Positions 26,649-54,765 of a DNA stretch of 64,000 bases are shown one piece after another. This stretch comes from a virus (taxonomy: Duplodnaviria > Heunggongvirae > Uroviricota > Caudoviricetes): IMG/VR virus record IMGVR_UViG_3300026382_000001; one strand, written 5' to 3'. Each line of letters starts with the position of its first letter. The stretch's first letter is position 1. The notes beneath the pieces were generated by a model that was given only the letters and a program-made list of their open reading frames with translations, did no database searches and had not been told where the DNA came from. The translations under genes and the position numbers were made by a program.

Positions 26649-26656
26649 AATAAATC

Positions 26657-30349: not shown

Positions 30350-30411
30350 AATTTAACGACAGGAAAAAACTTATAGATTAATTTCTATAAGTTTTTTCCT
30401 GTCGTTAAATT
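30350..30411. terminator. bidirectional hairpin element with TTTCCTGTC on both strands
   Basis: 28-bp perfect arms between convergent genes; each strand reads hairpin then TTTCCTGTCGTT. Confidence 0.88.
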
Positions 30412-30868
30412 AAGAAAGATCTTTTCCTAATTGGATATAGTATATTCCATTTTCTTTTTTATCCAAAGTTTCTAAAATATTTTTCATATCTTCTAAGGTT
30501 TCTGGTTGAAAATATTCTATATTTGATAATTCCATAATTCCCAAATCATCATCTAATTTATGCCCAGCTCCTAAAGTTTCATAACCGTACTTACCAGCAT
30601 TACATATAATTATTTTACCATTCTTAGAACCAAAATCTCTGCAACTAAATTTTAATTGTTCGTATCGATGAATTATAAAACCAGCAACTCCATAAATATA
30701 TACCGTATTACCAAGACTAGATAAACCACCAGTGATATTTAATAAATTACTTTCGCCAAGACCAATATTAATTACCTTGGCTTTTGTTGGAAAGTTTTTA
30801 GTATTAAACATATCAGCATGTAATAAGTATTCTTCTTTTTTTAAATAAGCTGCCATTAATTTACGCAT
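30410..30868 (-). CDS. transketolase-like pyrimidine-binding subunit (short)
   Basis: NIGLGESNL..GG, FIIHRYEQLK, GAGH..DD. Confidence 0.78.
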   Translation of the reverse strand: MRKLMAAYLKKEEYLLHADMFNTKNFPTKAKVINIGLGESNLLNITGGLSSLGNTVYIYGVAGFIIHRYEQLKFSCRDFGSKNGKIIICNAGKYGYETLGAGHKLDDDLGIMELSNIEYFQPETLEDMKNILETLDKKENGIYYIQLGKDLS

Positions 30869-30869
30869 A

Positions 30870-31472
30870 TTAATCCTTTAAATATCTTTCCTTTATTTTT
30901 CGAATGGTTTTAGTTTCTAAATTTTTAAAATAATAAACTCTATTAGAAGTTTCTTTAAATATATAATGATATAACTGAGGTATTAAATTATCTAAATCTA
31001 AAAATTCAATTTCTTTTTCATAATCTTTTTCTGGAACTTCGTTATTTCTTAGTTGTTTAATTAAACCCTTTTTTCTATCGGCTGAATAAATTCTTGGTAT
31101 TCTTAATAATTTATAATTTTTTAAAAAAGCTTTTATATAAAATTCCATAGCTCTTTTATAAGTACCATATATATCTAAATCATTGGTAGCAGCTTCTGAG
31201 CTAAAGAATATAAATTCTAAATTATTTTGTTCCGCTAAATCCACTAATTGCTGAGTTAATAATATCATTGAATTTGTAGTTTTTTTAACATTTTTAAAAT
31301 CTTCTTTATCCGATACTCCAGCAGTATGTATGATTTTTGTAAGTTTTGTTGGACAAGGATTTTTTAAATAATCGGCAAGAGTTATAAAATTAGCATTAAA
31401 TCCAGAATAATATTTATAATAATTAATAAAAGCTTTTCCCAAATATCCATTTTCTCCAGTTATTAATATCAT
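30870..31472 (-). CDS. short NAD-dependent sugar epimerase/reductase
   Basis: ITGENGYLG, IIHTAG, FFSS, YGTYK. Confidence 0.8.
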   Translation of the reverse strand: MILITGENGYLGKAFINYYKYYSGFNANFITLADYLKNPCPTKLTKIIHTAGVSDKEDFKNVKKTTNSMILLTQQLVDLAEQNNLEFIFFSSEAATNDLDIYGTYKRAMEFYIKAFLKNYKLLRIPRIYSADRKKGLIKQLRNNEVPEKDYEKEIEFLDLDNLIPQLYHYIFKETSNRVYYFKNLETKTIRKIKERYLKD

Positions 31473-31484
31473 ATTATCTCCATT

Positions 31485-32216
31485 TTATTTATTTAAGATA
31501 GTTATATCTTCAATATTTTTTAATTCTTTATAATGCCAAAGTACTGGATCTTCTTCCATTTCTTTAACGCCTTGACCTTTAGTAGTATTAAAAATAATTA
31601 CTACTGGTTTTTTACTTTCTTTTTGCTTTTGTAAAACATTATCTATAACTAAATTCATTCCATAATCATTTAAAACTTTAGTATCATAAAAACGAGTTTC
31701 TATATTATACATTTTAAACATATCTTCTATATTAAAACAATTAATACCAGAAACGTTTTGAAGAGAATCCGTTAATTGCATACCATTGAAATCGATAGTA
31801 ATTAACATATTTAATTGATGTTTTCCTATAAATTGTATAGCTTCTAATGTTGGACCCATTTGTAAAGCACCGTCGCTTAAGTTAACATAAGTAAGCTTAT
31901 CCGGACTTCCTAAAGCAATACCTGCTCCTATACCTAAAGCATTTCCAAGAGTTTCTTCGCTGTAATTAATAAAATCTAACTCTTCGTGTTTGACCCCATA
32001 AGATAATTTTTGGTCTTTAATTAAACCAAGTTCTTTCCAAATCATATAATAAGCTTGTGAACCAAAAGGCTTACCAATTACAATATTCGTCGTACTGTAA
32101 TCAAACTTTGGTAATAAGTATTTAAGATATGAGAATTGACTAAGAGCGCTTGGTATATGTTTTAGATTATTATCAATACTGTATTGAAGTAATTGTTTTG
32201 TTGTTTTATGAGACAT
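31485..32216 (-). CDS. transketolase-like TPP-binding N-terminal subunit (divergent)
   Basis: HIPSALS, TLGNALGIGAG, SDGALQMG..LEA, IDFNGMQL, TTKGQGV..ME....WHY. Confidence 0.8.
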   Translation of the reverse strand: MSHKTTKQLLQYSIDNNLKHIPSALSQFSYLKYLLPKFDYSTTNIVIGKPFGSQAYYMIWKELGLIKDQKLSYGVKHEELDFINYSEETLGNALGIGAGIALGSPDKLTYVNLSDGALQMGPTLEAIQFIGKHQLNMLITIDFNGMQLTDSLQNVSGINCFNIEDMFKMYNIETRFYDTKVLNDYGMNLVIDNVLQKQKESKKPVVIIFNTTKGQGVKEMEEDPVLWHYKELKNIEDITILNK

Positions 32217-32823
32217 TATAATGGGACTTCCCTTGTTTATAAAATAATTTATTTATGTATTTAATACTTCCACTATTTCTAAAAAATAAATAATAATCGT
32301 TATATTTATTATCAGTCTTTGGAAATTTTTTAATTATTTCTTTTTTAATTATTATTTGACCTAATTGAAAATGATCGAATTTTTCTGGAATATTATAATA
32401 ATTAAATAGTTCTGTATGTGTTTTATTCCATATTTTTTTAAATGATTTTCTAAAATTTTTTAAAGTACTATTTTCTCTAGCGTTTGGATAATATAATCCA
32501 AAACAATAATCATTTTTTAATTCAAAATCAAATGATGTTAATAAAGTATCATCATCTTCTAAATAATAAATATATTCACCATTTGATTTTTTATATAAAA
32601 AATTATATACTTGCCCCCAATTAATAAAAGAAGCATTATAAATAGTAATTGGTAATTTATATTTATTAAAATTTATATCCTTAATAGAATCGTCGTCATA
32701 ATTAATAATAATTTCATAAGGTATTTGTATATTTGCTTTACGAATACTTAATAAACATTTTTGTAATTGTTCTGGTCTATCATGAGTTGGTATTAATATA
32801 CTTAATTTAATATTTTTTGACAT
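32206..32823 (-). CDS. GT2-family glycosyltransferase (start probably MSKNIK)
   Basis: SILIPTHDRP, EIIINYDD, GEYIYYLEDDD. Confidence 0.82.
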   Translation of the reverse strand: MSKNIKLSILIPTHDRPEQLQKCLLSIRKANIQIPYEIIINYDDDSIKDINFNKYKLPITIYNASFINWGQVYNFLYKKSNGEYIYYLEDDDTLLTSFDFELKNDYCFGLYYPNARENSTLKNFRKSFKKIWNKTHTELFNYYNIPEKFDHFQLGQIIIKKEIIKKFPKTDNKYNDYYLFFRNSGSIKYINKLFYKQGKSHYNVS

Positions 32824-33752
32824 TTTAATAATCCGTCGCAGTTGCAAAAATCATGAGGGCATTTTTTTGGTAATATTTTTTTAATTTTTTTAAAATACAT
32901 TAAATTAGTTTCTAAAGAAAATGTTCCAGGAAAACAAGTACTACTTACAAAACCATTAAATGATATTTCATAGTTATTTTGATAACATGACCAATTTTTA
33001 AAAGTGAGATTTTTTGAAAAAACCTCAATATCATTAAGATATTCTTTTTTATCATTTATAATATATTCATATTCTTTATCCATATATTTATATATTTCTT
33101 GATATTTATTTAAAGAGGTTTTATATAATTTTTGTAAATCGTTGTGTGGATTTCCATCTGGATAAATAATATGTGGATGTATTATTATTTCTTTAGAAAT
33201 ATTTGGTAAATATTTTAACCATTCGTTAGTAATATTATCATATTTTGGATCTAACATTATATTAACTTTTACTTTAAAATATTTATTTAAATATTCTAAT
33301 TTTTCGATAAATAATTTTATTCTTTCTTCTGTTAAATTTTTGAAATACTCTGGATGAAAACTACATAATATAAAAGTATTTTTTATTTTAGGATGTTTTT
33401 CCCAATATGTTATATCTTGATTAAGATTAGTAGTTATATATAATCTATTATCTTTATGTCTTGGTAATATTTTATTTTGTATTTCTTCTAAAATATAAAA
33501 ATAGTTTTTAGATTCCGTTGGTTCTCCACCAAGCAATCCCAAGAAAACGGGAAGAGTACTAAATCGAAGGCTAGTAATAATATTATTTATATCCTTAATT
33601 TTAGATTCATTTTGCCAGTTATTTTCTTTAGAATAATCTAATTTAGCGTAACAGTAGTTACAGTTATAATTACATTTTGTAGTTATATCCCAATGAATAT
33701 ATAATCTTTGTATTTTATGATCAATTCCCTGAAAAGTTTTGGAATCTAGCAT
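32802..33752 (-). CDS. radical SAM protein with Cys-rich (twitch-like) C-terminus
   Basis: CNYNCNYC, LLGGEPT, SFHPE; CPHDFCNCD. Confidence 0.9.
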   Translation of the reverse strand: MLDSKTFQGIDHKIQRLYIHWDITTKCNYNCNYCYAKLDYSKENNWQNESKIKDINNIITSLRFSTLPVFLGLLGGEPTESKNYFYILEEIQNKILPRHKDNRLYITTNLNQDITYWEKHPKIKNTFILCSFHPEYFKNLTEERIKLFIEKLEYLNKYFKVKVNIMLDPKYDNITNEWLKYLPNISKEIIIHPHIIYPDGNPHNDLQKLYKTSLNKYQEIYKYMDKEYEYIINDKKEYLNDIEVFSKNLTFKNWSCYQNNYEISFNGFVSSTCFPGTFSLETNLMYFKKIKKILPKKCPHDFCNCDGLLKCQKILN

Positions 33753-34561
33753 GTACTATCCCGAAAAGTTGGGAAAAGTAAATGTTGCATTAAAAAATAA
33801 TAATTTTCATTTTTTAAAAAAAATAAATTATCATAGTCAATTGATATATTTTTTGGGAAAAAAGTGTATTTGCAATTATTTAAATTCTTCTCTATTTTTT
33901 TAGTTATATTCAAACCTTTTAAATAATCAATTTTTCCTAGGTTTTTATTATATGGATCTACATTTATAATTTCAGATTTGTAATTAGTTTTAATTATTGT
34001 ATCTGTTGCAAAAGTTAAATTAGATTCTGGTATTTCGGTTATATATTTAAACATTTCTATAATATCTTCTAACTTAAAAAAATTAAGATCTGATAAAAAA
34101 ATATTTTCAAATAATTTATCGGCATCTGTGGTAAATAATTTTTTAAGTTTTTCTAAATAAATTTTAAAACTGTCGCATTTATTCCATTCAGTTAATATTC
34201 CCAAATTAAATTTTTTTATATCAAATTTTTCACCGGTATAAAATAATAGAAAATATCTAAATTTTCTATTGAGTATCTCAGTAAACAATTCTAAATCAAT
34301 ATAAAAATTATTTTCTTTATCCTTAATTAAATTATATGTATCTATATCAAGTAATTTATAAGCACCATGATAAACAATTCGATTTATTGGTAAGGGTATT
34401 GTAAGACCACCTAATTTATGAATTTCTTCATCCGATAAAGAGGTATCGAGTTTAACAACTAATTCAAAACTATTATCTTTAAATTGATTATTTATTTTAT
34501 CTATAAGATTATTAACCAATTCCCTATTTTTTTTATGTACCTTTCTAATATCTTCGCTCAT
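33746..34561 (-). CDS. hypothetical protein in the modification cluster
   Basis: 271-aa ORF with SD; no motif recognised. Confidence 0.55.
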   Translation of the reverse strand: MSEDIRKVHKKNRELVNNLIDKINNQFKDNSFELVVKLDTSLSDEEIHKLGGLTIPLPINRIVYHGAYKLLDIDTYNLIKDKENNFYIDLELFTEILNRKFRYFLLFYTGEKFDIKKFNLGILTEWNKCDSFKIYLEKLKKLFTTDADKLFENIFLSDLNFFKLEDIIEMFKYITEIPESNLTFATDTIIKTNYKSEIINVDPYNKNLGKIDYLKGLNITKKIEKNLNNCKYTFFPKNISIDYDNLFFLKNENYYFLMQHLLFPTFRDSTC

Positions 34562-34576
34562 ATAATATCCTTTTAT

Positions 34577-35428
34577 TTAAATAAAATCTTGTAAATAGCT
34601 TAATTCATAACCACACGTTTTAAATTCACATAAACTTTTTTTCATTGTATCTTTTAAGTTGTCCCCATTTAATATATTTCCAGTTGGAGCATTCTGAGTT
34701 AAACTATAACTACATTTAAATAAATCTCCATTTCCATTAATAATAATATAATAGGAAGTATCACATAAATAATTATCGGGTACTGTAATTTCCCCAGCAA
34801 AATATTTATTTTTTTCTATTTCTTGTTTTGTTAATTTTATTTTTGATTTAACTAAATTTTCAAAACTATCACTTTGAAAATAGTTATAAGTAATTTCAGT
34901 TCGAATATTTAACAAATTAAAATATTTTCTTAAAAAAATGATATCTTTTATATTATTTTTAATTACCATTAAATCGATATAATTTAATTTAATTAATAAT
35001 TTCTTATTTTTAAAATACTTTAATTTATCTTTATATGTTATAATTTTATTATTTGTAATTTCAAAATGAAAGCTTATATTTAATAAATCAATATAATCCA
35101 AACTACTTATTATAAGATCGGGGTTATCGAAATTAGTCTGTAATTCAATGATACTATTTGAATTTAAATATTTAATATATTTTAAATAGTCTATTAAATA
35201 TTTCGATAATGTTGGTTCACCTCCATGAAAATAAAACAAAGGTGTTCTATTTTTTTCTTTAGCATATGATACACACTGATCTATTATTTTCATAATATCC
35301 TTTTTATTATAATCTATATTTGAATGATAATGACAATATGAACAATCTCTATTGCATAGTTCGGTAATTCTTAAAGAAAATTGTATTACTTTACATCCAG
35401 AAACATCCATTTTTTGTACAGTACCCAT
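34577..35428 (-). CDS. radical SAM protein (twitch-like C-terminus)
   Basis: CNRDCSYC, FHGGEPT, LQTN, SFH; NGDLFKC...CEFKTC; start may be the downstream ATG (MDVSG). Confidence 0.9.
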   Translation of the reverse strand: MGTVQKMDVSGCKVIQFSLRITELCNRDCSYCHYHSNIDYNKKDIMKIIDQCVSYAKEKNRTPLFYFHGGEPTLSKYLIDYLKYIKYLNSNSIIELQTNFDNPDLIISSLDYIDLLNISFHFEITNNKIITYKDKLKYFKNKKLLIKLNYIDLMVIKNNIKDIIFLRKYFNLLNIRTEITYNYFQSDSFENLVKSKIKLTKQEIEKNKYFAGEITVPDNYLCDTSYYIIINGNGDLFKCSYSLTQNAPTGNILNGDNLKDTMKKSLCEFKTCGYELSYLQDFI

Positions 35429-36173
35429 TAGTAATCTCCCTATAACAACAGTTATATTTATTTAATTTTGAATCCCAAAGAACATAATCATATGGACATG
35501 GTTTACCATAGGTACTAAACTTTCCGGAACATTGTTCTTCCCAAAGTTCAGATCTGAACTTTGATTCCCCAAGTATATAATTTTCTTCAAATTTTATCCA
35601 AGAATATATTTTTTTATATCTTATGATATTATACTCTTTATTTAAAGCACAACATAAATTTTTATTGTTTTTATAAAATCCAGAAATTGGCAATAAATAA
35701 CATATTTCTGGAAAAATTTTTTGAACTATTCTATAATACCTAATAGATTCTTTTCCAATATACATAATATCTATACGTTTCATATTTAGTATTTTTAAAT
35801 CATTTAACCTTTTTAATTCGATAAGATTATTTATTAAATCGGTTTCTGTTATTTCTGTTGGATGAACACTACACTGTAGGTTAAAGTTATTTATATTATT
35901 TTTAATAATATCGATACTTTTAGTACTAATATTACTTTGAATTACGAATGGTTGTTTTATTTTATTAAGATAATCTATTATAAATTTAATTTTTTTATGC
36001 ATAAATGGTTCTCCACCAAATACAAATAATTCTAAATCTTTGTCAATATTATCCATAAATTTTTTTAAAATATCTTCGTTTAATTCCATTTTATAATTTG
36101 GTAAAGAACAATAAAAACAATTATAATTACATTGACTTATTACTTCCCACTCTTGAAGTTTATTTATTTCCAT
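35391..36173 (-). CDS. radical SAM protein (twitch-like C-terminus)
   Basis: CNYNCFYC, FGGEPF, SVHP; CPY...CC...CTKNGC. Confidence 0.9.
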   Translation of the reverse strand: MEINKLQEWEVISQCNYNCFYCSLPNYKMELNEDILKKFMDNIDKDLELFVFGGEPFMHKKIKFIIDYLNKIKQPFVIQSNISTKSIDIIKNNINNFNLQCSVHPTEITETDLINNLIELKRLNDLKILNMKRIDIMYIGKESIRYYRIVQKIFPEICYLLPISGFYKNNKNLCCALNKEYNIIRYKKIYSWIKFEENYILGESKFRSELWEEQCSGKFSTYGKPCPYDYVLWDSKLNKYNCCYREITNGYCTKNGCFWM

Positions 36174-36230
36174 ACAAATAATTTCCTTTCATTTATAATT
36201 TGATAAAGTAAAATATATTAATTTTTGGGT

Positions 36231-37079
36231 TTATTTAATTTCATTAAACTTTGAAATATCATGCTCTAACTCATTTAATTTATTTTCTCTACCAGATATT
36301 TTAAAATTTATATAACCAAGTGATTTAGCTTTGGTTATTAATTTATTATCCAAATCCATTCCAGTCTTACATGAAGTTAAACAATTATCTGGATTAAAAT
36401 TTGATAACCAACATTCTTCAACCTCTTTAATTTTTAATACAATATCCTTTGAGTTTAAACCATTCGAATTTACCTTAGATATTTCTTTAAAATGTTCATA
36501 ATAAAATTCACAATTTGGTTTACATGTATCATTTACCATAATTTCATATTTTTCTAAATTTAATTTAAGAAACCAATCTTGAAAAATATGTTCCATTTTT
36601 GGAACAATTAAATCGTACTTAGTCTCTAAATTAGAATAATACTCGAAATATTTTTGCTGCGTTAACGAATTTGGATAAGCTTCCAAATCATGTCCAGTAA
36701 TACTATATTTTAAATTAAAATTATAATTATCTTTTAAAAATAATCGCAACTCTTCGTTTATTAAAGTAATTTCATTTTGTATTTTATATTTTTTAGATGA
36801 TTGATCTAATAATTCTAATAATTCTAAACCAACGTTATCTTTTAAATCTATAACTCCATTTGAAAATGTAAATGAAACAGGTATTTTAAATTTATTATAG
36901 AATTCAATATCGGATAAATCAATATTAATATTTCTATTTATTCTTCCACCATTCCATTTACAATTATTTGGGCCATCATATACTTTAACATTAAATTTTT
37001 TTAATAATTTTAATTTTGTAAAAATTATTAATAATTTTTTTTTATCGAATGTAAAAGCTCCTGCTATATTTAAATTCAT
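36231..37079 (-). CDS. peptidase U32-like Fe-S protein
   Basis: CKWNGGR, MVNDTCKPNC, ECW, FKISGRE (cf. U32 LKIEGR). Confidence 0.65.
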   Translation of the reverse strand: MNLNIAGAFTFDKKKLLIIFTKLKLLKKFNVKVYDGPNNCKWNGGRINRNINIDLSDIEFYNKFKIPVSFTFSNGVIDLKDNVGLELLELLDQSSKKYKIQNEITLINEELRLFLKDNYNFNLKYSITGHDLEAYPNSLTQQKYFEYYSNLETKYDLIVPKMEHIFQDWFLKLNLEKYEIMVNDTCKPNCEFYYEHFKEISKVNSNGLNSKDIVLKIKEVEECWLSNFNPDNCLTSCKTGMDLDNKLITKAKSLGYINFKISGRENKLNELEHDISKFNEIK

Positions 37080-37969
37080 ATTTTTTTCCTAGTCGATAAT
37101 CGTTCATTTTTAAAACATCTATCATAATCATTTATATTATCAATAAATATATTATATTTTTCAGAAAATTTAAATTTATTAACAGAATAAAATTTTTTAA
37201 TATAATTATAATTTATAAAATTAGTTTCTATATTAACTTCCATTTTTTTAAATTTTTCTATTTTTGATTTGGGAACTGGTATCCAATCAGGTATTCCATC
37301 TTTAGATAAAACATTAAATATGTAATAATAATCATAATTATATTCTTTTAATATTTTTATTAATATTTCTAATTCTTTATCGGTATAGGTATTAACCATT
37401 AAAAGAAATACAAATTTACCAGGGTTGTTATCCAGTACTGGTTTTAATTCTTTTAATTTTTTAATATAGAAATCTAATGATAATTGTTCCAAATGAAAGG
37501 TAAAATCAATAACATAATTATTAAAATTTGTACTATTTAAAAAATTGAATAATGTATCCAATTTTGAAGCAGATGTACTAAAATTAGAAAATATTTTAAA
37601 TAGAATTTTTTGATTATTAAACATATGTAATTTAGCAGACATATAATTAATAATAATTTCAAATCTATTAATTTTTTCTAAATTATAAAAATATTCCCCA
37701 GATGAAATACTTATAAAAAAACCATCATTATCATATTTAGATTTAGAATACTCTAAAAAAACTTTATCTATTATCTTAAAAAGCTGTTCGTTTGTAAAAG
37801 TACCTTTATTATTTGGTACAGAAAGAAATTTATCAAAACAGTAACTACAATCTAAATTACAAGTTGTATCAAAAGCTAACAATAGTATTTTATAAAATCG
37901 TTTTCCTATTGGTAACGCCAATGTTGTTTTTTTTATAAGATCCTCTTTATTATCCAATATAAAACTCAT
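37076..37969 (-). CDS. divergent radical SAM protein (start revised to MSFILD)
   Basis: CNLDCSYC, SSGEYF, TFH; ATGA overlap with the upstream stop and an AAGGA SD. Confidence 0.8.
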   Translation of the reverse strand: MSFILDNKEDLIKKTTLALPIGKRFYKILLLAFDTTCNLDCSYCFDKFLSVPNNKGTFTNEQLFKIIDKVFLEYSKSKYDNDGFFISISSGEYFYNLEKINRFEIIINYMSAKLHMFNNQKILFKIFSNFSTSASKLDTLFNFLNSTNFNNYVIDFTFHLEQLSLDFYIKKLKELKPVLDNNPGKFVFLLMVNTYTDKELEILIKILKEYNYDYYYIFNVLSKDGIPDWIPVPKSKIEKFKKMEVNIETNFINYNYIKKFYSVNKFKFSEKYNIFIDNINDYDRCFKNERLSTRKKI

Positions 37970-38913
37970 AGCAATTCCTTTTTTATTTGAGTAAGATAAT
38001 AACATGGACATGTTATTTCACAATTAACTATAAACATATTTTTCATTTTTATAAGTAAATTATTAAAATTATCATGAATATTTCCAATTTTTGTACCAGT
38101 ACAACCTTGTAAAATATTTAAATTGTAATCAATTAAGAATTCTTTTAAGTAACATTTTTTCTTATTTTTTAATAATATGAAATTATTTATAGAAATTTCT
38201 TTATCATTCATAGTAACACTTGGATTTAATAATTGTATCAATTTACGAAATGGATTTGATTTGGATTTTGAATAGATTTTAGCTCTTTTTTTTAAGAAAT
38301 TTTCATTTCCATTATCTATAACTTCGATATTTATATCAATAACTTTTGATAATTTTTCGATAGTATTAAAATTATTATTATAAAATTCAATATATTCTTT
38401 TTTTAATGTAAGCATTAAATCCATTTTTAAATTAATTTTATAATTATTTATTAAATAATTTAAATTTTTAAAAAATATATTATCATTTAAATCAATTAAT
38501 TCATGTACACTCGCAGTAATAAAAATATTATCTAAAAAATTATTATTTTTACATATTTCAATACCTTTTAATAAATTTGAAATATTTATTAAATTCGTAA
38601 AAATATTCATATTTATTTTATTTTCGATACAAAAATTAACACAATCTAAAAAATATTTACTTAAAGTAGGTTCTCCACCTAATATAAGTAATTGAAGATT
38701 TGGAAATTCTTTTTTAATATGTAATAAAAATATTTTAATATTATTCCAATTTTCTTGAGATAAATTTTTATTCCAATCGTTAGTTTTGTTATAATAATTT
38801 TTCGAATAACAGTATGAACAATCTAAATTACATACTGTAGTTATATCCAAACTGATTAATATATCATATTGAAAAAATTTATCCATTTTTTTATTTGGTT
38901 TAATAATATTCAT
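37966..38913 (-). CDS. radical SAM protein (twitch-like C-terminus)
   Basis: CNLDCSYC, LGGEPT, FTN, SVH; CEITCPC. Confidence 0.9.
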   Translation of the reverse strand: MNIIKPNKKMDKFFQYDILISLDITTVCNLDCSYCYSKNYYNKTNDWNKNLSQENWNNIKIFLLHIKKEFPNLQLLILGGEPTLSKYFLDCVNFCIENKINMNIFTNLINISNLLKGIEICKNNNFLDNIFITASVHELIDLNDNIFFKNLNYLINNYKINLKMDLMLTLKKEYIEFYNNNFNTIEKLSKVIDINIEVIDNGNENFLKKRAKIYSKSKSNPFRKLIQLLNPSVTMNDKEISINNFILLKNKKKCYLKEFLIDYNLNILQGCTGTKIGNIHDNFNNLLIKMKNMFIVNCEITCPCYYLTQIKKELL

Positions 38914-42169: not shown

Positions 42170-42178
42170 ATATTTCCT

Positions 42179-43051
42179 TTATAATAAATATTTATTCACG
42201 TTTGTTTTATCCCCATCGTAACTAGTACAAAAATTTTCATCACATATTACTTTTTTATTTACTGGTATATCGTGATTTTTAATATTTAAATTCTGTTTTA
42301 AATTATAAGAACATGAAAATATTATATCACCATTAATATTAATATCAAAAACATTTGGAGTACAGTTAAATTGTTTTTTATTGTACTTAGCATTTACAGC
42401 ATAATTTTTAGATATATACTTAAACATTTTTTCTTCTGAGATACCGCAGGAAAATATATCAAATAATACATCATTTTTAAATATGGGTATAAATCTATAT
42501 TTTATATCATTTTCATTTAGGAAATCTAAAATTAATTCAATTTTTTCTTTATGTTCTTTGGTTAATACATCATCTATATAAAAATTAATAAACATTTGTA
42601 TATTTTCTTCATTATAAGTTTTTAGATTAAAAAATAAAGAATCGAAATTTTTTAAAAAATTAAAGGGATGTACACTAATATTTAACATAGATTTTTTAAA
42701 TTTTTTTAATAATTTTAAATCCTTATAAATTAATCCATTTGATGTAATTGAAAAAATATCAACTACTCCAAGAATATGTAAATCTAACATATCTTCTATT
42801 TTTTCATTAAGTAATTCTTGACTTAATGTTAGAGGTTCGCCACCCAAGAAATCTATATATAATTCCTTATTTGGATATTTTTTTTTAATCTTCTTTAATC
42901 TATGTTTAAAAAAAGTCCAAACGGATTTAGAAATTAACTTTACAGTATTTAAATAAGATACATAACAATATGGGCAATTTAAATTACAAGTCGTCGTTGG
43001 TTCTATAGATACATAAACTTGTTTATTTTGTATATTCGAGCAACTCATCAT
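42179..43051 (-). CDS. radical SAM protein (twitch-like C-terminus)
   Basis: CNLNCPYC, FLGGEP, TSNG, SVHP; CTPN...SC...CDENFC. Confidence 0.9.
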   Translation of the reverse strand: MMSCSNIQNKQVYVSIEPTTTCNLNCPYCYVSYLNTVKLISKSVWTFFKHRLKKIKKKYPNKELYIDFLGGEPLTLSQELLNEKIEDMLDLHILGVVDIFSITSNGLIYKDLKLLKKFKKSMLNISVHPFNFLKNFDSLFFNLKTYNEENIQMFINFYIDDVLTKEHKEKIELILDFLNENDIKYRFIPIFKNDVLFDIFSCGISEEKMFKYISKNYAVNAKYNKKQFNCTPNVFDININGDIIFSCSYNLKQNLNIKNHDIPVNKKVICDENFCTSYDGDKTNVNKYLL

Positions 43052-43895
43052 TTTCCTTTAATTCTATATTTTCAAAATTATTATTTATATCCCACCAACG
43101 CCAATATAAACCAGTATCTCCATAATCTGGTCCACAATATTCTTCGAAATTAAAATCAAACAATATTTTTTTATTATAAAATTTACATTCCGCGATAAAT
43201 CTTGGACTACAATCGAATTGAAATTTGGTTTTCGTATATAAAAAAGAATTAAATTTTTCAAAAATATTTTCAACTGGAGCAGTTAAAACAAAATCTCCAA
43301 AATTATGTTTAGTTCCAGATACGTAAAGAATATTTTCATTATCCGTAATATTATCCAATTTTCTAAGATTTGTATTAATATATATTAATGTTTTGTTTTG
43401 TACTGAATTTCTAATGGTTTTAAAATATTTAAAATTTATTTTTTTAACGTAATTTATACAATTATTAAAATTATCGTAATCTTTATATATTCTTTTATCT
43501 TGTAATAAATATACCTTATCATTTTTTAAAATTTTTGAATAATCTGTGATTTTATTACATCTTAATAAAATCAATTTTTCAAATAATAAAACATATTTAT
43601 CCCAGTAATAATCATATAAACCATCTGTAAATATTAAAATATCACCTTTTATAATTTTTCTTTTAAAATTAAAAATAATATCTTTTTTATAATCATTTGG
43701 TAATATGTACTTATCTTCCCAAGCTTTATAAAAAATATTTTTAGGTGAGTTTTCTTGTATTAAAATATTTACCGAATATCCCAATTCATGAAATAATAAA
43801 TAATAATCCATTACCTCAAAGGTATGACCACATATTCTATTTCTTTCAAATTGGCTTGGACAATAAGTAAGAACTATTTTTTTACCAAAATTCAT
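43023..43895 (-). CDS. putative GT-B fold glycosyltransferase-like protein
   Basis: N-terminal ICGHTFE; C-terminal FLY...DCSPRFIAECKFYNK resembles the GT-B (D/E)x7E motif. Confidence 0.4.
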   Translation of the reverse strand: MNFGKKIVLTYCPSQFERNRICGHTFEVMDYYLLFHELGYSVNILIQENSPKNIFYKAWEDKYILPNDYKKDIIFNFKRKIIKGDILIFTDGLYDYYWDKYVLLFEKLILLRCNKITDYSKILKNDKVYLLQDKRIYKDYDNFNNCINYVKKINFKYFKTIRNSVQNKTLIYINTNLRKLDNITDNENILYVSGTKHNFGDFVLTAPVENIFEKFNSFLYTKTKFQFDCSPRFIAECKFYNKKILFDFNFEEYCGPDYGDTGLYWRWWDINNNFENIELKENDELLEYTK

Positions 43896-43909
43896 TTTTT
43901 CCCTTTTAA

Positions 43910-44791
43910 TTATTTTTTTAAATTAATAAATCCAACTATATTTCTTAAGTCTGGAAAACATGGACATTCATTTAAAGTACATACTTTACTTTTTAAAATA
44001 CTTTTAAGACCTTTTTTAAAAAATATATCAAATGTAATACTAGTATTATTGCATTCATTTGTGATACCTTCTGGTCGTATACAAATATAATTCGCGTGGC
44101 AAAAAACTTTTTTAGGACTAATTTTATGTTTATTAAAATTAGTCCCATAAATAGATTCACTAATATTTTCAACCAAATCGGAATGAATTATATCAAACTG
44201 TATTTCGGGAATTAACGAAACAAGATAATTCTCATTATTTTTATTTATTTTAGAATAATTTTTATCTAGACTTTGTAAAAAATCGATATTGAATATATAA
44301 TTATTCTCTTTAAGGTACTGAAGCTTTATAGCAAAATTATCCAAACTTTTATTATTTCTTACAGCATTATTATGAATAGTAAATAAACTCCAAAATTCAT
44401 TAAAGTCTTGAAACTTTTTATAAAAGTATTCGTATTGTTTAATACTTCCAGTTAAATTAGATAAAAATTCTATTTTAACGCTTTCTTTTCTGTATGAAAA
44501 TACTTCAAATATATTATCTAAATACTTATAGTAATCTTTGGACTCGGTTAATTCCCCACCAAGTATAGATAACGAAATTATTTTAAAATTCTTTGTATCA
44601 GTATCTAATTTAATTAGGATATCTTTAAATTCATCTGGACTTAACTTAATCGAACTATTTAATTTAGAATATGTAAAACAATATTCACAACCAATACTAC
44701 AATTATAAAAAGGTATTAATTGAACATAAATACCCAAGTTATTATTAAATATTTTTGTATTTAATTCACTGGGTTTATTTTTAGATAACAT
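43910..44791 (-). CDS. radical SAM protein (twitch-like C-terminus)
   Basis: CSIGCEYC, LGGELT, LSNL, TIH; CTLNECPC. Confidence 0.88.
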   Translation of the reverse strand: MLSKNKPSELNTKIFNNNLGIYVQLIPFYNCSIGCEYCFTYSKLNSSIKLSPDEFKDILIKLDTDTKNFKIISLSILGGELTESKDYYKYLDNIFEVFSYRKESVKIEFLSNLTGSIKQYEYFYKKFQDFNEFWSLFTIHNNAVRNNKSLDNFAIKLQYLKENNYIFNIDFLQSLDKNYSKINKNNENYLVSLIPEIQFDIIHSDLVENISESIYGTNFNKHKISPKKVFCHANYICIRPEGITNECNNTSITFDIFFKKGLKSILKSKVCTLNECPCFPDLRNIVGFINLKK

Positions 44792-45636
44792 TAAAATTCC
44801 TTTAGAAAATTTGTAAAGTTAATAGATCTTTTAAATATATTATCTATATAATTGACCTTAGTTCTAAAATTATCTTCTGTTAAATCACTCCAACAATAAG
44901 TATTTAAATTATTTAATTTTTTGAATAATCTATCATATCCATAATAATTTAAAGCTTCTAACATAGCTTTATTATCGTTGGCAATAGCTAAATTATTCAT
45001 AAGTAATAATTTTTTTTTGTAATAAATACATTCTAATAATGTATTTGAAACTGAATCATTATCTTCGTTATTTATTAAATAAGTTTCAAAATTATTAAAA
45101 AAATAATCTTGATCGGTACAAGAATCAAAACCTTCTATATTACCACCAAATACTAGAACATCTCGTTCGGAAATATCGTTATTTTTTAAATAGTTTAAAA
45201 GTACTTTTTTATCTTGGCATTCAGCCCGATTATATATACCATACTTATACTGTTTTGATTGATAGTTAACTATTGATAGTTTACTATCAATAGTTAACTC
45301 GTAAAAATAAGTTGGATAGAATTTCATATTATAATATTTACTGTAATAAAAACCATTTGAAAATATTTTATTATTATTTTTTAAAAATAAATATTTAGTC
45401 TTCTCGAAAAATATATTATCTTTTATTAATTCATGTTTAGATTTAGAATATGTAAATAAAAGATTTTTAAATATTTTAGCATCTGGTTGTCTATAAAAAT
45501 TAATATTGGGCGTTCTTTTGGATGGAGAAATATTCATAATGAATTGGTTATTATAGTTCCGTAAAATTTTGGCAGGAATAGTATTCGAACCTCTTTTACG
45601 AGATCCGAATCTATTTTCTTGAATTAAGTTAATCAT
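44791..45636 (-). CDS. putative GT-B fold glycosyltransferase-like protein containing a palindromic repeat
   Basis: YGIYNR; DSVSNTLLECIYYKK resembles GT4 E.FSNxLLEA. Confidence 0.4.
   Translation of the reverse strand: MINLIQENRFGSRKRGSNTIPAKILRNYNNQFIMNISPSKRTPNINFYRQPDAKIFKNLLFTYSKSKHELIKDNIFFEKTKYLFLKNNNKIFSNGFYYSKYYNMKFYPTYFYELTIDSKLSIVNYQSKQYKYGIYNRAECQDKKVLLNYLKNNDISERDVLVFGGNIEGFDSCTDQDYFFNNFETYLINNEDNDSVSNTLLECIYYKKKLLLMNNLAIANDNKAMLEALNYYGYDRLFKKLNNLNTYCWSDLTEDNFRTKVNYIDNIFKRSINFTNFLKEF
45262..45299. repeat. intragenic copy of the AATAGTTAACTATT family (hairpin with 17-bp arms)
   Basis: AGTTAACTATTGATAGT-TT-ACTATCAATAGTTAACT at 45264-45299. Confidence 0.8.
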
Positions 45637-45653
45637 TGTTAATCATTATAATT

Positions 45654-46268
45654 TTATAGAATTTTAGTAGGAATTATTTTTTCAGCTAATACCTCTAATT
45701 CTTCTTCATCAGCATAATCAATATCTTCTTTAGTTTGTATTAATTCGTTATTTAATTCTAAAAATGGTTTGAGTTCATCCTGTATACTTAAATACAATTC
45801 TAATTTTTCGATAGCGCTTTCGTCGTCTAATTCTAAAATTTCAATATATTTATCTTCTTTATTATCTTCAGTAATAAAAATTCCTTTAGCTGCAAAATAA
45901 TTAAATAAAGTAATATAATGAATATATGTTAAAAAGCTAATTTTTTGAATATTTAAGGCCAAATTATTATCCATATAATTATATAATTCTACTTTTTTTA
46001 ATTCTAGTTCTTCTGCTTCTAAAGTAGTGCCTTCGGGTAAATCTTCTTTAAGATATATAAAACTATCTTTAGTAATACTTTTTTTAAAAATATCTTCTTC
46101 TTTAATATATACTTTTCCATATTCATTAACCAAGGCATTGTACATATATTTTGTTGCATCGTCAATCATAGCATAATTTTCGAATAATTCTAAATCTTGA
46201 CCAGAGAATTGCATAATTTCAGAAATTACAAAATTTCCATTTATTTTATTTAGTAAAGCTACTTGCAT
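45654..46268 (-). CDS. acidic hypothetical protein next to the Cys-rich protein
   Basis: 204-aa ORF with SD; KGIFITEDNKEDKYIEIL segment. Confidence 0.6.
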   Translation of the reverse strand: MQVALLNKINGNFVISEIMQFSGQDLELFENYAMIDDATKYMYNALVNEYGKVYIKEEDIFKKSITKDSFIYLKEDLPEGTTLEAEELELKKVELYNYMDNNLALNIQKISFLTYIHYITLFNYFAAKGIFITEDNKEDKYIEILELDDESAIEKLELYLSIQDELKPFLELNNELIQTKEDIDYADEEELEVLAEKIIPTKIL

Positions 46269-46285
46269 TTATTTTCCTTTAATTT

Positions 46286-46864
46286 TTAATAATTTGCATT
46301 ACAGTTACATGTACATACTGTATTACATTTACATACACTTGGACAAGAGTTATGGTCATTTTGATTACATAATCTAGCAACTGCTTTTAATTTATTTTTT
46401 AATGTTGTCATACTTGCATTATCTATTAAATTACCGCGGGATCTATATGTTACGGAACCAGTTGTTGCAACAACATTATCTGCCCACCATTTCATAGTAT
46501 TATAATGATCATGGTCTACTAATTTACCCGGAGCAACTAAAGATGATATTGCCTCGATATCAGAAATGTTTCTTTCGCTAGCAATACTATGAATAATATC
46601 ATACATATCTTTAAAATGTTTATCATCTATTAATTCATTGTTTGGTGAAGTATGTCCAAATACTGTTTCCAAAGCACTTGCATAATTAGAACTACAAGTA
46701 TCTCTATACGAAGGACATGTACTAGCAACATCAGTATTAGAATTAGGAGGATTATTAGACGAGGTATTTCCATCTCCTCCGGTAGTATAAACTCTGGTAC
46801 CAGATGACCAAACTGTCGTATTAAATCGACAATTAATATTAGTTGTTTTGGTAGTACGAGACAC
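46286..46864 (-). CDS. Ser/Thr/Asn-rich protein with a 7-Cys C-terminal tail; candidate radical SAM substrate and virion fibre component
   Basis: ends CNQNDHNSCPSVCKCNTVCTCNCNANY; three L(I/V)D repeats; strong AAGGAG SD. Confidence 0.65.
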   Translation of the reverse strand: MSRTTKTTNINCRFNTTVWSSGTRVYTTGGDGNTSSNNPPNSNTDVASTCPSYRDTCSSNYASALETVFGHTSPNNELIDDKHFKDMYDIIHSIASERNISDIEAISSLVAPGKLVDHDHYNTMKWWADNVVATTGSVTYRSRGNLIDNASMTTLKNKLKAVARLCNQNDHNSCPSVCKCNTVCTCNCNANY

Positions 46865-46875
46865 ATTTTCTCCTT

Positions 46876-48723
46876 TTATTTATTATTTATAATTTTATCA
46901 AATATGTATAAATATTTACTAATTTGATTGTTAATTTCACATGATAATGTTAAACCATGAGAGTACATATCTTTATAAAGATCATTAGTAGTACTAGTGT
47001 CTAAAGATCTATCTGGGGTTATATTTACCATTGGGCATTTAACACATGTAAGTGTTTTACATCCATCGCAATATGAATATTCTTTATCCGAATTAATAAC
47101 CTTTTCCAATTTTTCTTTTGTTTTAAAGAATTTTTGTTGAAAAGTATCTGAAGTTATATCACCGTATTTTAAACTATTTAATTGTTCTTTTTTATATGGA
47201 AATTTAACATTTGTATGTTCTTCTCCAAATTCAGTTCTATGACAATATCTTCCAATACCATCCTGATCAAGACCAAATAATTTACTTCCCGCAGAACATG
47301 TGGTATTATTAGCAGCATAACTCATTTCTCTAAACCATCTGGTAAAAGCTGGTTTGTTATTTATTAATCTATCCATTTCAAATTTTAATAAATATTTAAA
47401 AGTCTCGTCTAATTCGGTAAATAGTTTTTCTTTTGGTTTTGTATTTCCACACTTTTCCTGTTGTCTTAAATTATACATTAATATAGAGGTAGTATCGAAA
47501 GTTGGATAATAAGAAAAGTTATTTGGATTATTATTTTTTTTATTTATATCTTCTTCAAATGTTACATAATCCTGCACTGCGTCTGGAACACTACTAATAG
47601 CCTCCAATGGTAAAGTCGCTTTTAAGGATACCTTAATTCCATTATCTTCATTAAGTAAAGCTCTAATTTCTTTAGTAAGAGATTCTTTAGTTCCATTTTT
47701 TTTAGAATCTTTTCTATAATCATCTTGGATTCTTCCACCATCATAAGATATTTGAACTTTAATCTTATCTCTTGGAAAATCTGGATGGAAGAAACCAATA
47801 GTTCTTTTAGCAGAATAATTATTAGTAATTAAAATAATATATTTTAAATCTAATTCATCTTCTAATAATTTAGTTAATTTGTGAGTTACTTCCTGTGGTA
47901 CTAAAGTTGGTTCTCCACCAAGAATACTAAAAGACATTTTAGAAACAAGTCCTTTTTCTTCTAAAGTTCTGGCAAAATTTTTTATACCTTTGACAATATC
48001 TTCTACATCATCTATCGATAATATTTCGGTAACTTTATCAAGACCTTCATAACAATAAGTACATTTAAAATTACAATTTTTATTTATTTGAAATACTATA
48101 TGAAATGAATCTTCGTCATCATGATTTGTAGGATCTGGAGTATCGTCGTGAAAATAATGTTCTTTTTTTAAGATAATATCTTTTTCATTTAATTTTTTTT
48201 CATCTAGTGTTTTTCTATAGTAATTATTTAAATCGTTATATAAATTTTTTAAATTAATATCATTTTCTATTAATTCTTCGTAATGTCTAGCATATTCCAA
48301 TCTGTTGTGAGCTTCTTGATAAGTTTCCTGATATTTATATTGAATTATAGTAGTACTCAATTCTTTTACAAATTCGCCAATATCATTTATAAAATTACTA
48401 AAATCGTTTCCAGTAACTTCGGAAATATATTTTAAAAGAATTATCATTTCAAATAAATCATCATTTATTAATTTTAAAATTTTAATAGTTTGTTCATTAC
48501 GTTCTGGAGTTTCTTCAAAGTCTTCTAAGGTATCTAATAAAATATCCTTAGTTTTAATATCCGATTGACCTAAAATATTAAAGATATCTAATAAAATATT
48601 TAAATTATCCTCGTTAAATATAAAGGAAATTTCCTTTATATTTAACAATGAATTATTTATTAATTCATTTATTCTCGGTATAGCCTCTTCTGGATTAATA
48701 CTCATTTCTTCAAACTTTTCCAT
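46876..48723 (-). CDS. radical SAM/SPASM protein with a ~200-aa N-terminal extension
   Basis: CNFKCTYC, LGGEPT, ISYDG; CSAG...YCH...CDGCKTLTCVKCP...SC. Confidence 0.9.
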   Translation of the reverse strand: MEKFEEMSINPEEAIPRINELINNSLLNIKEISFIFNEDNLNILLDIFNILGQSDIKTKDILLDTLEDFEETPERNEQTIKILKLINDDLFEMIILLKYISEVTGNDFSNFINDIGEFVKELSTTIIQYKYQETYQEAHNRLEYARHYEELIENDINLKNLYNDLNNYYRKTLDEKKLNEKDIILKKEHYFHDDTPDPTNHDDEDSFHIVFQINKNCNFKCTYCYEGLDKVTEILSIDDVEDIVKGIKNFARTLEEKGLVSKMSFSILGGEPTLVPQEVTHKLTKLLEDELDLKYIILITNNYSAKRTIGFFHPDFPRDKIKVQISYDGGRIQDDYRKDSKKNGTKESLTKEIRALLNEDNGIKVSLKATLPLEAISSVPDAVQDYVTFEEDINKKNNNPNNFSYYPTFDTTSILMYNLRQQEKCGNTKPKEKLFTELDETFKYLLKFEMDRLINNKPAFTRWFREMSYAANNTTCSAGSKLFGLDQDGIGRYCHRTEFGEEHTNVKFPYKKEQLNSLKYGDITSDTFQQKFFKTKEKLEKVINSDKEYSYCDGCKTLTCVKCPMVNITPDRSLDTSTTNDLYKDMYSHGLTLSCEINNQISKYLYIFDKIINNK

Positions 48724-48761
48724 TTATTTAATCCTATTCTTTTTAAGTTTTATAAAAATAT

Positions 48762-50798
48762 CTATTTAACTTTACATAGAATTTTAAAATTTTCTAAAGA
48801 ACTTGGGTCGCTATTTTCCAATGCTACTCCAATTAAATCAATGGTATTTTTATAAGTGTATGTTCCTTCAGCAACGTTCGGATTATTATGACTAGGATAT
48901 AAATACATTCCTTTTTTAATAAGTCCTTCGCATTTAACAGGTACTCTACCATTTAAAGCAATATTAACATATTCTTGATTATTTTCGAAAGTGCTATTAA
49001 GTACAAAACCTGGATTAGTCGTTACAATACCACAGTATATATTACCTTTAGCATTCTCAGTAACTTCAAAATCTTCATTATCTTTAGATCTATTAAAATA
49101 TAAAATAGTCCCCGATTCATACATATAATCTTCATGATTTTCTTTTTTATAGTACTCGGCTAAATCGGCATACTTAGCCGTAGTAGCAGTACCTGTAAAA
49201 GTTCCAGCGTCTACTGTAACACCGCTTGCATTATCGAATGTTAGTGTATCTCCATCCCAATACATATTTCCATCATCGGTACTACAAGTAATTCTATTAG
49301 AGTGATGTAAATCTATTTCGGTATTACTATAACTAAGTACATCATTACCATTATATTGTAAAGTATTGGCATAAAATTTCCAAGCACCATCATCTCCCCA
49401 ATCTTCAAGATTAAAAGATTCTACAAATTGTAAACGATTATCCAAATATTTTATATTATCATCAGCATTGAAAACTCTAGCTTTCGCTTCGGCTGCTATA
49501 TTTCCAATTAATGCTAACTGAGCATACAAATCATTTACTCCAACCGCTAATTCATTATCTTTTAAAGTAAATGGTGAAATAATATTTGAATTGATTAAAG
49601 ATCGGAACTTAACAAACATTTCGTTAATTGTATCAGTATAATTTTCAAATCTTCTTTCTATTTGTAAATCTGTTCTAAGCATTAGATATTCACTGAAACC
49701 TTGACTAGATATTTTCTCAGCTTTATCGTACCAATCCACTGTTTTTAGATCTTGAAACATACTTGCTTTATTTTCTAAATCCGAATTAGTCTCTGATTTT
49801 AAAAAATCAGTTATGGTTCCATAGATTACGTCGTACATATCGTATAATGATTTAACAATAACTTTTATTTTATCATCAGTGTATTCGAATACTTGTTTGC
49901 TTTCATCAATACTTTCTTGTAATAAAGCGGTTAATTTATTTATTTGAGTTCTATTTAAATTTAACTGACTACCAATTACAGATACCTTTCTTTTAAGATT
50001 AGAAATATCAAAAGAATATTCATTAATAGTATCGTCATATTTAGTTAATATTTCCGAAATTTTAGTAGCTAATAGTTCGGCTTGAATTTCTAAATTATTT
50101 TTAGTAGGTAAGTTTTGATATTGATCACCTTCTACAAATTTAGCAAAAATACTAAACACAGTACTTTTTTTATTAGTGGCATCTATTAAATTTAAAATTA
50201 TTTCAACTTTATAAACTCTTCTATTTTCTATTAATTCTATATCATCTGGATCTAAAGAATCAAAATCAAAATTAGAATATAAGTTAATACCATTATTATT
50301 TAATCTAATTGTAATATTATCCATACCAGTACTTGGGATAGGATCAATATCGAAATAAGAAGCATTTGTACCAACTATAGTACAAAAGGTATTGTATACT
50401 AAATCTATTTTAGCAGTAAGCATATTTGGATAAAGATTATGTGTATACATATTATGTTCAAAATGATTTAAAACGTAAGGCGCATTGTCGATAATACGCT
50501 GTACTTTAATACTAATATTTTGTGATATGCTGGCATCAGTTTCCATATCAGTTGCTATAATAGTAAAATTAAGTTGTTGAATTTCTTTATTTATATCTTC
50601 TGGATAATCCGTATTAATAGCGTCTTTACCATCACCCGTTAAATAAACTTTATTTTCTTGAACAGAAAAATATTGATTATAACTAGATTCTAGCGAATAA
50701 GAAACCGAATTAACGTCAGTTTCCACTTCAGTTATTAACTGCCCATCTACTAAGTTTTCTTCTATTATATCATAAATTTTTATTTCCGTAAATTCCAT
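48762..50798 (-). CDS. tail fibre/receptor-binding protein with C-terminal intramolecular chaperone domain
   Basis: Ig/cadherin-like N-terminus, coiled coil, TATTAKYADLAEYY...GIVTTNPG..LN...IALNGRVPVK...IGVALE. Confidence 0.75.
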   Translation of the reverse strand: MEFTEIKIYDIIEENLVDGQLITEVETDVNSVSYSLESSYNQYFSVQENKVYLTGDGKDAINTDYPEDINKEIQQLNFTIIATDMETDASISQNISIKVQRIIDNAPYVLNHFEHNMYTHNLYPNMLTAKIDLVYNTFCTIVGTNASYFDIDPIPSTGMDNITIRLNNNGINLYSNFDFDSLDPDDIELIENRRVYKVEIILNLIDATNKKSTVFSIFAKFVEGDQYQNLPTKNNLEIQAELLATKISEILTKYDDTINEYSFDISNLKRKVSVIGSQLNLNRTQINKLTALLQESIDESKQVFEYTDDKIKVIVKSLYDMYDVIYGTITDFLKSETNSDLENKASMFQDLKTVDWYDKAEKISSQGFSEYLMLRTDLQIERRFENYTDTINEMFVKFRSLINSNIISPFTLKDNELAVGVNDLYAQLALIGNIAAEAKARVFNADDNIKYLDNRLQFVESFNLEDWGDDGAWKFYANTLQYNGNDVLSYSNTEIDLHHSNRITCSTDDGNMYWDGDTLTFDNASGVTVDAGTFTGTATTAKYADLAEYYKKENHEDYMYESGTILYFNRSKDNEDFEVTENAKGNIYCGIVTTNPGFVLNSTFENNQEYVNIALNGRVPVKCEGLIKKGMYLYPSHNNPNVAEGTYTYKNTIDLIGVALENSDPSSLENFKILCKVK

Positions 50799-54734: not shown

Positions 54735-54765
54735 GACAGGAAAATCTTAGGCAAAAGCCTAAGAT
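54735..54765 (-). terminator. hairpin + TTTCCTGTC element
   Basis: ATCTTAGGC/GCCTAAGAT stem after the portal stop. Confidence 0.8.

Follow-up and report, generated by a model that had tools for sequence, protein, structure and literature searches.

This study concerns a 64,000-nucleotide stretch (the window) of the tailed-phage record IMGVR_UViG_3300026382_000001 (Caudoviricetes), in which a long array of radical S-adenosylmethionine (SAM) and glycosyltransferase genes lies directly behind a tail fibre or spike gene (Table 1). On balance we favour the reading that this cassette encodes a two-module system that modifies the phage's own virion, most likely parts of the tail fibre. In the first module a SPASM-type radical SAM enzyme is paired with a protein that has a Cys-rich C-terminal tail, and the second is a set of predicted sugar-tailoring enzymes and glycosyltransferases. 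We observed the gene content, the folds, the gene order, the exchange of the middle of the cassette and the orthology to Campylobacter phage genes directly. A preliminary description of the same DNA had proposed a single pathway, which we abandon in favour of two separable modules, since the sugar part is also found without the SPASM/Cys pair.

The 22 packed minus-strand genes of that description (30410-48723) were recovered by calling of open reading frames (ORFs), with the 678-aa gene (48762-50798) upstream of them, and all intergenic gaps from 54677 to 30410 lie between -46 and +57 nt. Ten of these genes have an intact CxxxCxxC motif, as had been counted (genes beginning at 32802, 34577, 35391, 37076, 37966, 38900, 41240, 42179, 43910 and 46876), and the additional intact radical SAM gene on the plus strand (28997-30043) also carries it. 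The PF04055 (Radical_SAM) profile matches 11 of 11 genes, six above and five below its curated cut-off; the rest of the 167-kb contig to which the window belongs contains only one further CxxxCxxC radical SAM gene, outside the window. In the degenerate gene at 40491-41240 the motif is gone, as previously reported, and its alignment with 42179-43051 (E 1e-6) spans the C-terminal half, with four C-terminal Cys kept. The GT2, short-chain dehydrogenase/reductase (SDR) and split transketolase assignments also stand, on the profiles and the PDB entry given in Table 1.

In order to follow the cassette across viruses, the 290-aa GT-B glycosyltransferase was used as the only bait, which yielded 32 viral loci, three metagenome loci and one 8-kb contig of a metagenome-assembled genome (MAG); the resulting 28 locus groups are phylogenetically non-independent. 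The recurrent plan consists of a fibre gene, one or two SPASM enzymes, the Cys-tail protein, a 204-aa protein, two GT-Bs, three to ten radical SAMs, a GT2, U32-like proteins, transketolase parts, SDRs and deacetylases, and the order fibre - SPASM - Cys-tail - 204-aa - GT-B - radical SAMs is retained in viral contigs of 21-36% GC. Seven of the 28 groups are uninformative regarding linkage to tail genes (less than 3.5 kb upstream and no marker); in 16 of the 21 informative ones a fibre marker or the Cys-tail gene is found within 10 kb, and in five it is not, one of the marker profiles being derived from the loci themselves. Two loci (L024 and L048) have no SPASM/Cys pair, yet their sugar genes abut S74 tail-fibre genes. 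The proposed tail link is thus strengthened by the conserved order in many viral contigs, by fibre chaperone domains and by the virion proteomics of Campylobacter counterparts. At the usual fibre position upstream of the SPASM genes, one locus (L029:1619-3349) has a 576-aa protein that by eye looks like an outer-membrane receptor, with no PHROG match.

The 678-aa protein is supported as a fibre or spike precursor by three observations. The profile of its C-terminal domain matches phi29 gp12* (3gqh, E 2e-4), with the invariant cleavage-site Asp and Glu of the family aligned. PF11962 (Peptidase_G2) is found at E<=0.1 in 12 of 15 homologues (best 1.7e-6), the 678-aa protein itself being below the cut-off. 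Finally, its homologues 1-59 and 2-11 in Campylobacter phage IBB_35 were detected in virions, with coverages of 9% and 14% (PMC3322345).

The gene of the 192-aa Cys-tail protein (46286-46864) adjoins the SPASM gene, and this pairing, already proposed in the preliminary description, is reinforced by its conservation in gene order across many viral contigs. Many homologues have CNY as the last residues of the tail, with a Peptidase_S74 fibre chaperone (scoring above the Pfam threshold) immediately after it; therefore, the 192-aa family comprises fibre proteins, and the Cys tail would be the mature end. A short unit of Gly-x2-Ile plus a helix precedes the Cys tail and is repeated up to three times within the protein. 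Taking as criterion for SPASM the seven-Cys C-terminal pattern Cx9-15Gx4C...Cx2Cx5Cx3C...C, the 615-aa enzyme has CxxxCxxC at 217, Cx12Gx4C at 476-494 and Cys 552/555/560/563/595, that is Cx12Gx4C, Cx2Cx4Cx2C and the final Cys, at slightly shorter spacing; the Pfam SPASM domain has no match in it. Its top NCBIfam matches (TIGR04463, PapB, DynA and QhpD-type), each far short of the cut-off, are maturases of Cys-rich substrates. We consider it likely, from the gene pairing, that the 192-aa protein is the substrate of the SPASM enzyme; for thioether chemistry on the Cys tail, which is argued by analogy, the chances appear even. The gene of the 204-aa protein comes next after the Cys-tail gene in almost every locus; with its model, fold searches gave no more than generic helical matches (the best at Z 7.2) and no viral match under E 0.001, and we can only guess that it is a tail-assembly chaperone.

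In the second module both GT-B assignments were corroborated by structure comparison, since each protein (43023 and 44791) has two Rossmann-like domains matching GT-B structures, and the 281-aa one is 50-60% identical to its counterparts in four close relatives. The GT-B and U32-like alignments found no match when searched against PDB sequences. The 290-aa enzyme matches PimA (VIA Z 15.9, rmsd 3.6, 253 residues aligned), GtfA (Z 13.5), T4 alpha-glucosyltransferase (Z 13.3) and the glycosyltransferase of phage HY126 (Z 12.2), and these matches span lipid, glycan, protein (GtfA) and DNA acceptors. Twitch-type enzymes were recognized by a short domain at the C terminus whose roughly four Cys would hold one auxiliary cluster. 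This Cys set is present in the genes at 32802, 34577, 35391, 37966, 41240, 42179, 43910 and 28997, with three Cys in 38900, and absent from 37076-38011, which has a single Cys after CxxxCxxC. The latter gene and 40491-41240, which lacks the SAM-cluster motif and keeps the auxiliary Cys, may be decaying or complementary. The split transketolase has no C-terminal domain and is therefore not a full transketolase, although both the subunit binding thiamine diphosphate (ThDP) and the pyrimidine-binding subunit are present. Two pieces are displaced from the cassette: the orthologue of the 348-aa plus-strand radical SAM sits within the cassette in most other loci, and the SDR/deacetylase trio closes it in L024, L033, L040 and L041 and is contiguous in phage CP220 as gp158-156. 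In one related locus (L036:19293-20534) a probable flavin-dependent halogenase lies between the transketolase halves (one Trp_halogenase match, ORF assigned by inspection).

The sugar character of this module was upheld by the accessory genes of related cassettes, mostly sugar enzymes, including DegT-type aminotransferases (9 of 83 proteins), SDRs, GT8, GT32, carbamoyl- and amidinotransferases. That the GT-B and GT2 enzymes attach a tailored sugar to a virion protein is, on these gene assignments, plausible at slightly less than even chance. The two proteins earlier called U32-like keep that name on a structural lead only: neither matches PF01136 or any other Pfam or NCBIfam family, and none of the 120 homologues listed has a PF01136 match. 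Their Atlas neighbours are a cluster in which 12% of members carry PF01136 (template-modelling (TM) score 0.78) and a PqqD-fused cluster (TM 0.77), the range being 12-16% of members, and Glu, Cys and His residues are conserved. The fusion to PqqD is found in Spirochaetota and hints that the subfamily can act on peptides.

A different use for these enzymes would be hypermodification of the phage DNA, with a U32-like enzyme hydroxylating a base and the GT-B enzymes adding the tailored sugar. U32 proteins hydroxylate nucleotides, so that the U32-like genes could in principle make the acceptor base; the two phage glycosyltransferases among the fold matches given above (T4 and HY126) and the overlap of the plus-strand radical SAM with a dUTPase gene point the same way. 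We nevertheless regard this as improbable, in keeping with its earlier low ranking. The U32-like genes occur only in a minority of cassettes and not in CP220, the families listed include neither a base hydroxymethylase nor TET/JBP nor a base kinase, and the QueC and QueE-like genes of this phage lie far from the cassette. Moreover, CP220 DNA is reported to be 100% ADG, made by a separate pathway with DpdA3, and no sugar is mentioned there (bioRxiv 10.1101/2023.04.13.536721).

The middle of the cassette, about 9 kb, is replaced as a block among close relatives: none of its genes exceeds 38% identity in the four close relatives, whereas the flanks reach 44-83%. One close relative, L004, with a portal that shares 94% identity with the one of this phage, has orthologues of CP220 gp80, 81, 82, 86 and 87, in order and 34-59% identical, exactly at the swappable position. 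Judged from sequence, the cassette and the CP220 module draw on one gene pool. An amidinotransferase gene, present in L004 and L010, is absent from the window (the contig being 59% complete).

The parallel with Campylobacter phages drawn in the preliminary description is borne out, as CP220 has most of the gene set: homologues of GT-B, the 204-aa protein, both transketolase parts, both SDRs, the deacetylases, the 348-aa radical SAM and the G2-fibres, together with two SPASM-type enzymes and the Cys-repeat protein gp140. Homologues of the 290-aa GT-B occur in 15 Campylobacter phage records, and the 204-aa homologue in 15 of 15 Firehammervirus records. Protein gp140 (534 aa) has CxCxCNY repeats, also common to several members of the 192-aa family, adjoins the transketolase C gene gp141, and is conserved in 15 of 15 Firehammervirus records. 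Its IBB_35 orthologue, 3-9, was found in virions, where no radical SAM protein was listed (PMC3322345). A search of cultured phages with the SPASM enzyme and the U32-like proteins returned zero matches.

Timms et al. (2010) called it highly unusual that Campylobacter phages have 11-12 radical SAM genes; they proposed a metabolic boost and reported that CP220 and CPt10 carry an interchangeable module of five radical SAMs (PMC2853527). Along that line, the cassette would be auxiliary metabolic cargo without a common product, gathered in a recombination-prone fibre island and boosting host metabolism at low oxygen, and the low GC of the middle, with one degenerate and one truncated radical SAM, would fit. 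We consider this very improbable, as the genes are ordered and overlapping, the ends are fixed and the same enzyme classes are re-assorted across unrelated phages; furthermore, the single match in bacterial and archaeal species genomes is the 8-kb MAG contig, which itself resembles a viral locus.

Modification of the virion by both modules also has to be weighed against a division of labour, in which the SPASM/Cys pair modifies the fibre and the sugar module remodels host surface glycans (flagellin, lipooligosaccharide or capsule), blocking superinfection or changing recognition. DegT/PseC/LegC-like aminotransferases and PseB-like dehydratases are found in related cassettes, Firehammervirus is flagellotropic on hosts with variable flagellar glycans (PMC8713573), and such a role has been proposed for cyanophage sugar genes (PMC12801897). 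The phage also carries a CheY gene (G000:C1 55664-56077 = L057:5665-6078) of Campylobacterota type, whose nearest PDB entry is 3gwg (E 2e-39, the next group being at E 6e-28). Entry 3gwg is from Helicobacter pylori. Such a chemotaxis regulator could change host motility in infection, and a Campylobacterota host is likely on this sequence match. However, no membrane, lipid-carrier or export gene was recognized in the cluster, the cassette lies inside a structural unit, and the fibre linkage extends across phages with probably very different hosts, so that we find the host-surface explanation unlikely.

The same accessory genes would also suit the synthesis of a free aminoglycoside-like pseudo-oligosaccharide acting on the host cell or on competitors. 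Cassettes contain amidinotransferase, DegT-type aminotransferase, PIG-L deacetylase, GT4-like transferases, carbamoyltransferase and twitch radical SAMs, the enzyme types of the streptomycin, butirosin and neomycin pathways. Genes of this kind in cyanophage S-SCSM2R were termed 'antibiotic synthesis genes' (PMC12801897). This product appears somewhat less likely than a change of the host surface, given that no cyclitol synthase, exporter or self-resistance gene is among the families listed and that the fibre linkage would be left unexplained.

Several observations weigh against a two-module modification of the virion. The 615-aa enzyme is below the cut-off of every family (TIGR04463 42/525, PapB 41/340 and QhpD 39/453 bits), and no RRE- or PqqD-like peptide-recognition domain was identified, its N-terminal extension matching nothing in Pfam and nothing clearly in the PDB. 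Plain metal binding or disulfide formation could also account for the Cys tail. The coverage at which IBB_35 3-9 was detected in virions is 2.6%, and gp140 is joined to the 192-aa family by the repeat pattern, profile searches between them being not significant. The preliminary description had expected homologous clusters to be tail-linked; this is the case in the 16 groups mentioned above, but not in Firehammervirus, where the genes are dispersed, mostly away from tail genes, and several lie by replication or nucleotide genes. Furthermore, no fibre marker is found within 7-10 kb in one lineage (L030/31, L032, L034 and L040) or in L044, and the locus groups share kinship and are not independent samples. 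As to the sugar module, the GT-B fold suits DNA and small-molecule acceptors about equally, and the accessory gene set likewise resembles aminoglycoside pathways. All functional and chemical steps are read from neighbouring genes.

If the virion is indeed the target, we propose that the SPASM enzyme, like PapB or QhpD, would generate a radical from SAM and with it link Cys thiols to carbons of nearby Asn/Asp/Thr residues within the 192-aa protein's C-terminal tail, and that the thioether links would form a reduction-proof knot at the fibre tip. A precedent is QhpD, which forms thioether cross-links in protein and acts on folded-protein subunits (PMC8326336). In the second module, host nucleotide sugars would be reshaped by the twitch radical SAMs (oxidation, epimerization, deoxygenation), the SDR and the deacetylases, and the split ThDP enzyme may add a carbon branch or extension. 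The conserved ends would provide priming and transfer, and the swappable middle would alter the sugar, as in bacterial serotype loci. The glycosylation of virion capsid and tail tube by mycobacteriophage glycosyltransferases is a precedent, as cited in PMC12619734 and PMC10877033.

Among the closest known systems is the Firehammervirus module (CP220, CPt10, IBB_35), both having several radical SAMs with sugar transferases and exchanging blocks between close relatives. It differs in that the genes are scattered in these T4-like phages and form one block behind the fibre gene in the PBS1/AR9-like jumbo phage described here, in whose middle U32-like genes are present and an amidinotransferase is lacking. 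The Firehammervirus papers name no substrate for the radical SAM genes (PMC2853527, PMC3322345). Ranthipeptide and protein thioether systems (PapB/PapA, CteB/SCIFF, NxxcB, QhpD/QhpC, TIGR04463) likewise have a SPASM enzyme beside a Cys-rich, Asn/Asp/Thr-rich C-terminal stretch, whereas the phage has a fibre-class substrate candidate, no peptidase, exporter or identified recognition domain, and bit scores near 40 where the cut-offs are 340-525. The glycosylation of mycobacteriophage virions (Freeman et al. 2023) also involves phage-encoded glycosyltransferases proposed to decorate virion proteins, but, according to papers citing that work, with few transferases on the capsid and tail tube instead of a large radical-SAM sugar set by fibre genes; the likeness is one of description.

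BtrN/NeoN-type twitch enzymes are radical SAMs of ~300 aa with four C-terminal Cys and aminotransferase, deacetylase and GT4-like partners, as here. Relative to those aminoglycoside clusters, the genes here are viral and include many paralogues with no cyclitol synthase seen; the likeness is one of type. The phi29 gp12* and S74-chaperone fibres have self-cleaving C-terminal chaperones as do the 678-aa protein and the 192-aa homologues, and to our knowledge no enzymatic cross-linking or glycosylation of them is known. In the literature searched, with few subscription journals covered, we found no paper on radical-SAM modification of virion proteins or a fibre-linked cassette, and a compendium of radical SAM enzymes for peptides that are made by ribosomes and modified after translation (RiPPs) does not mention phages.

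The transcription of the cassette was considered from a recurrent element, hairpin-TTTCCTGTC, which, in agreement with the preliminary description, has zero copies from 54735 to 30403. The TTTCCTGTC sequence itself is found 7 times versus 0.44 expected, and hairpin-TTTCCTGTC(GTTAAA) occurs in ten copies after stop codons (window 247-62378, and G000 outside the window). Because the linked copies come after stop codons and a palindrome carrying the element lies between converging genes, it reads as a terminator, and 30350-30411 as a terminator-like unit end. A role as promoter was rejected, given the position of the ten linked copies and the 30358-30403 pair, which would point antisense into the converging genes. 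The conservation of sequence beyond the U-run suggests a terminator or processing signal specific for a phage RNA polymerase. A sigma-70 promoter scan gave matches at chance level. The region 54677-30410, between two such elements, fits one transcription unit, in which internal promoters are possible.

The viral contig that contains the window is 167 kb long, with 26% GC and an estimated completeness of 59%, and the same proteins are also on record in a 281-kb contig. The portal protein resembles the PBS1/AR9 and phiR1-37 portals by sequence match, and all three sequencing runs containing the phage DNA are hydrothermal-vent metagenomes, of which two may be its source; no RNA run was among those listed with this DNA. 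The RNA polymerase and DNA polymerase genes are split and lie outside the window, and many Cys-containing homing-endonuclease-like ORFs share one repeated motif (window 885-2615, 17425-18150 and 25761-26672, plus many outside). QueC, with an extra N-terminal domain (G000:C1 43476-44108), and a QueE-like protein (~11300-12100) are both distant from the cassette; judged by their sequences, this PBS1/AR9-like phage, which also carries dUTPase, may modify its DNA with 7-deazaguanine. No FolE or QueD was found in the 59%-complete contig.

Table 1. Features of the cassette, its displaced pieces and its boundaries in the window
Feature	Position	Strand	Remarks
Tail fibre/spike precursor, 678 aa	48762-50798	-	C-terminal Peptidase_G2-type self-cleaving chaperone domain
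Radical SAM/SPASM enzyme, 615 aa	46876-48723	-	Candidate maturase of neighbouring Cys-tail protein; N-terminal extension ~190 aa
Fibre-class protein, 192 aa	46286-46864	-	Cys-rich C-terminal tail, Cys conserved; candidate substrate
Conserved partner, 204 aa	45654-46268	-	Small beta domain and long helices
GT-B (GT4-like) glycosyltransferase, 281 aa	44791-45636	-	Atlas structure neighbours Glycos_transf_1, TM ~0.7
Twitch-type radical SAM, 293 aa	43910-44791	-	Motif and C-terminal Cys set
GT-B glycosyltransferase, 290 aa	43023-43895	-	Cassette marker gene across phages; AlphaFold pLDDT 93
Swappable middle	33746-43051	-	Seven intact radical SAMs, one degenerate (40491-41240), two U32-like, one 271-aa gene; 19% GC
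U32-like paralogues	36231-37079, 39616-40494	-	Structural lead
271-aa gene	33746-34561	-	Within swappable middle
Twitch-type radical SAM, 316 aa	32802-33752	-	Starts conserved end block; 78% and 64% identity in two relatives
GT2-like glycosyltransferase	32206-32847	-	PF00535, E 4e-6
Transketolase-like ThDP-binding subunit (N part)	31485-32216	-	PF00456, E 2e-7; homologue CP220 gp72
Short SDR epimerase/reductase	30870-31472	-	PF01370, E 9e-6; homologue CP220 gp12
Transketolase-like pyrimidine-binding subunit (C part, truncated)	30410-30868	-	PDB 6yaj, E 1.9e-6, pyrimidine-binding domain only; homologue CP220 gp141
Radical SAM, 348 aa	28997-30043	+	Displaced cassette member; overlaps dUTPase gene; CP220 gp163 homologue, E 5e-34
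SDR (410 aa), PIG-L-like deacetylase, polysaccharide-deacetylase-like	4393-6950	-	Second displaced cassette piece
Palindrome	30350-30411	.	28 bp, perfect; hairpin-TTTCCTGTC on both strands, between converging genes; z -14.9
Hairpin-TTTCCTGTC element	54735-54765	-	3' of portal gene; upstream boundary of unit

The abundance of radical SAM genes in Campylobacter phages is known, and their function has been a puzzle since 2010. To this the window adds the anatomy of conserved ends and swapped middle, a correspondence with the CP220 module that holds gene for gene, and a candidate virion substrate that can be named in a cultured phage pair. The locus presents the scattered Campylobacter genes as one ordered block behind a fibre gene, with the constant part distinct from the swappable part, and the named candidate substrate, CP220 gp140 / IBB_35 3-9, has already been detected in virions. 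CP220 and CPt10, both cultured, at least 96% identical and with different modules, make the idea testable. It is possible, though we hold it doubtful, that many unrelated large phages run an exchangeable pathway of this kind, giving a radical thioether cross-linked fibre tip and a strain-variable radical-tailored glycan coat, a phage 'serotype locus'. If true, this would explain the Firehammervirus radical SAM genes, and phage structural biology would gain enzymatic cross-links and glycan coats that vary. It would also bear on host recognition and on immune recognition of biocontrol phages, and would open a large uncharacterized set of radical sugar enzymes, a source of dozens of new ones.

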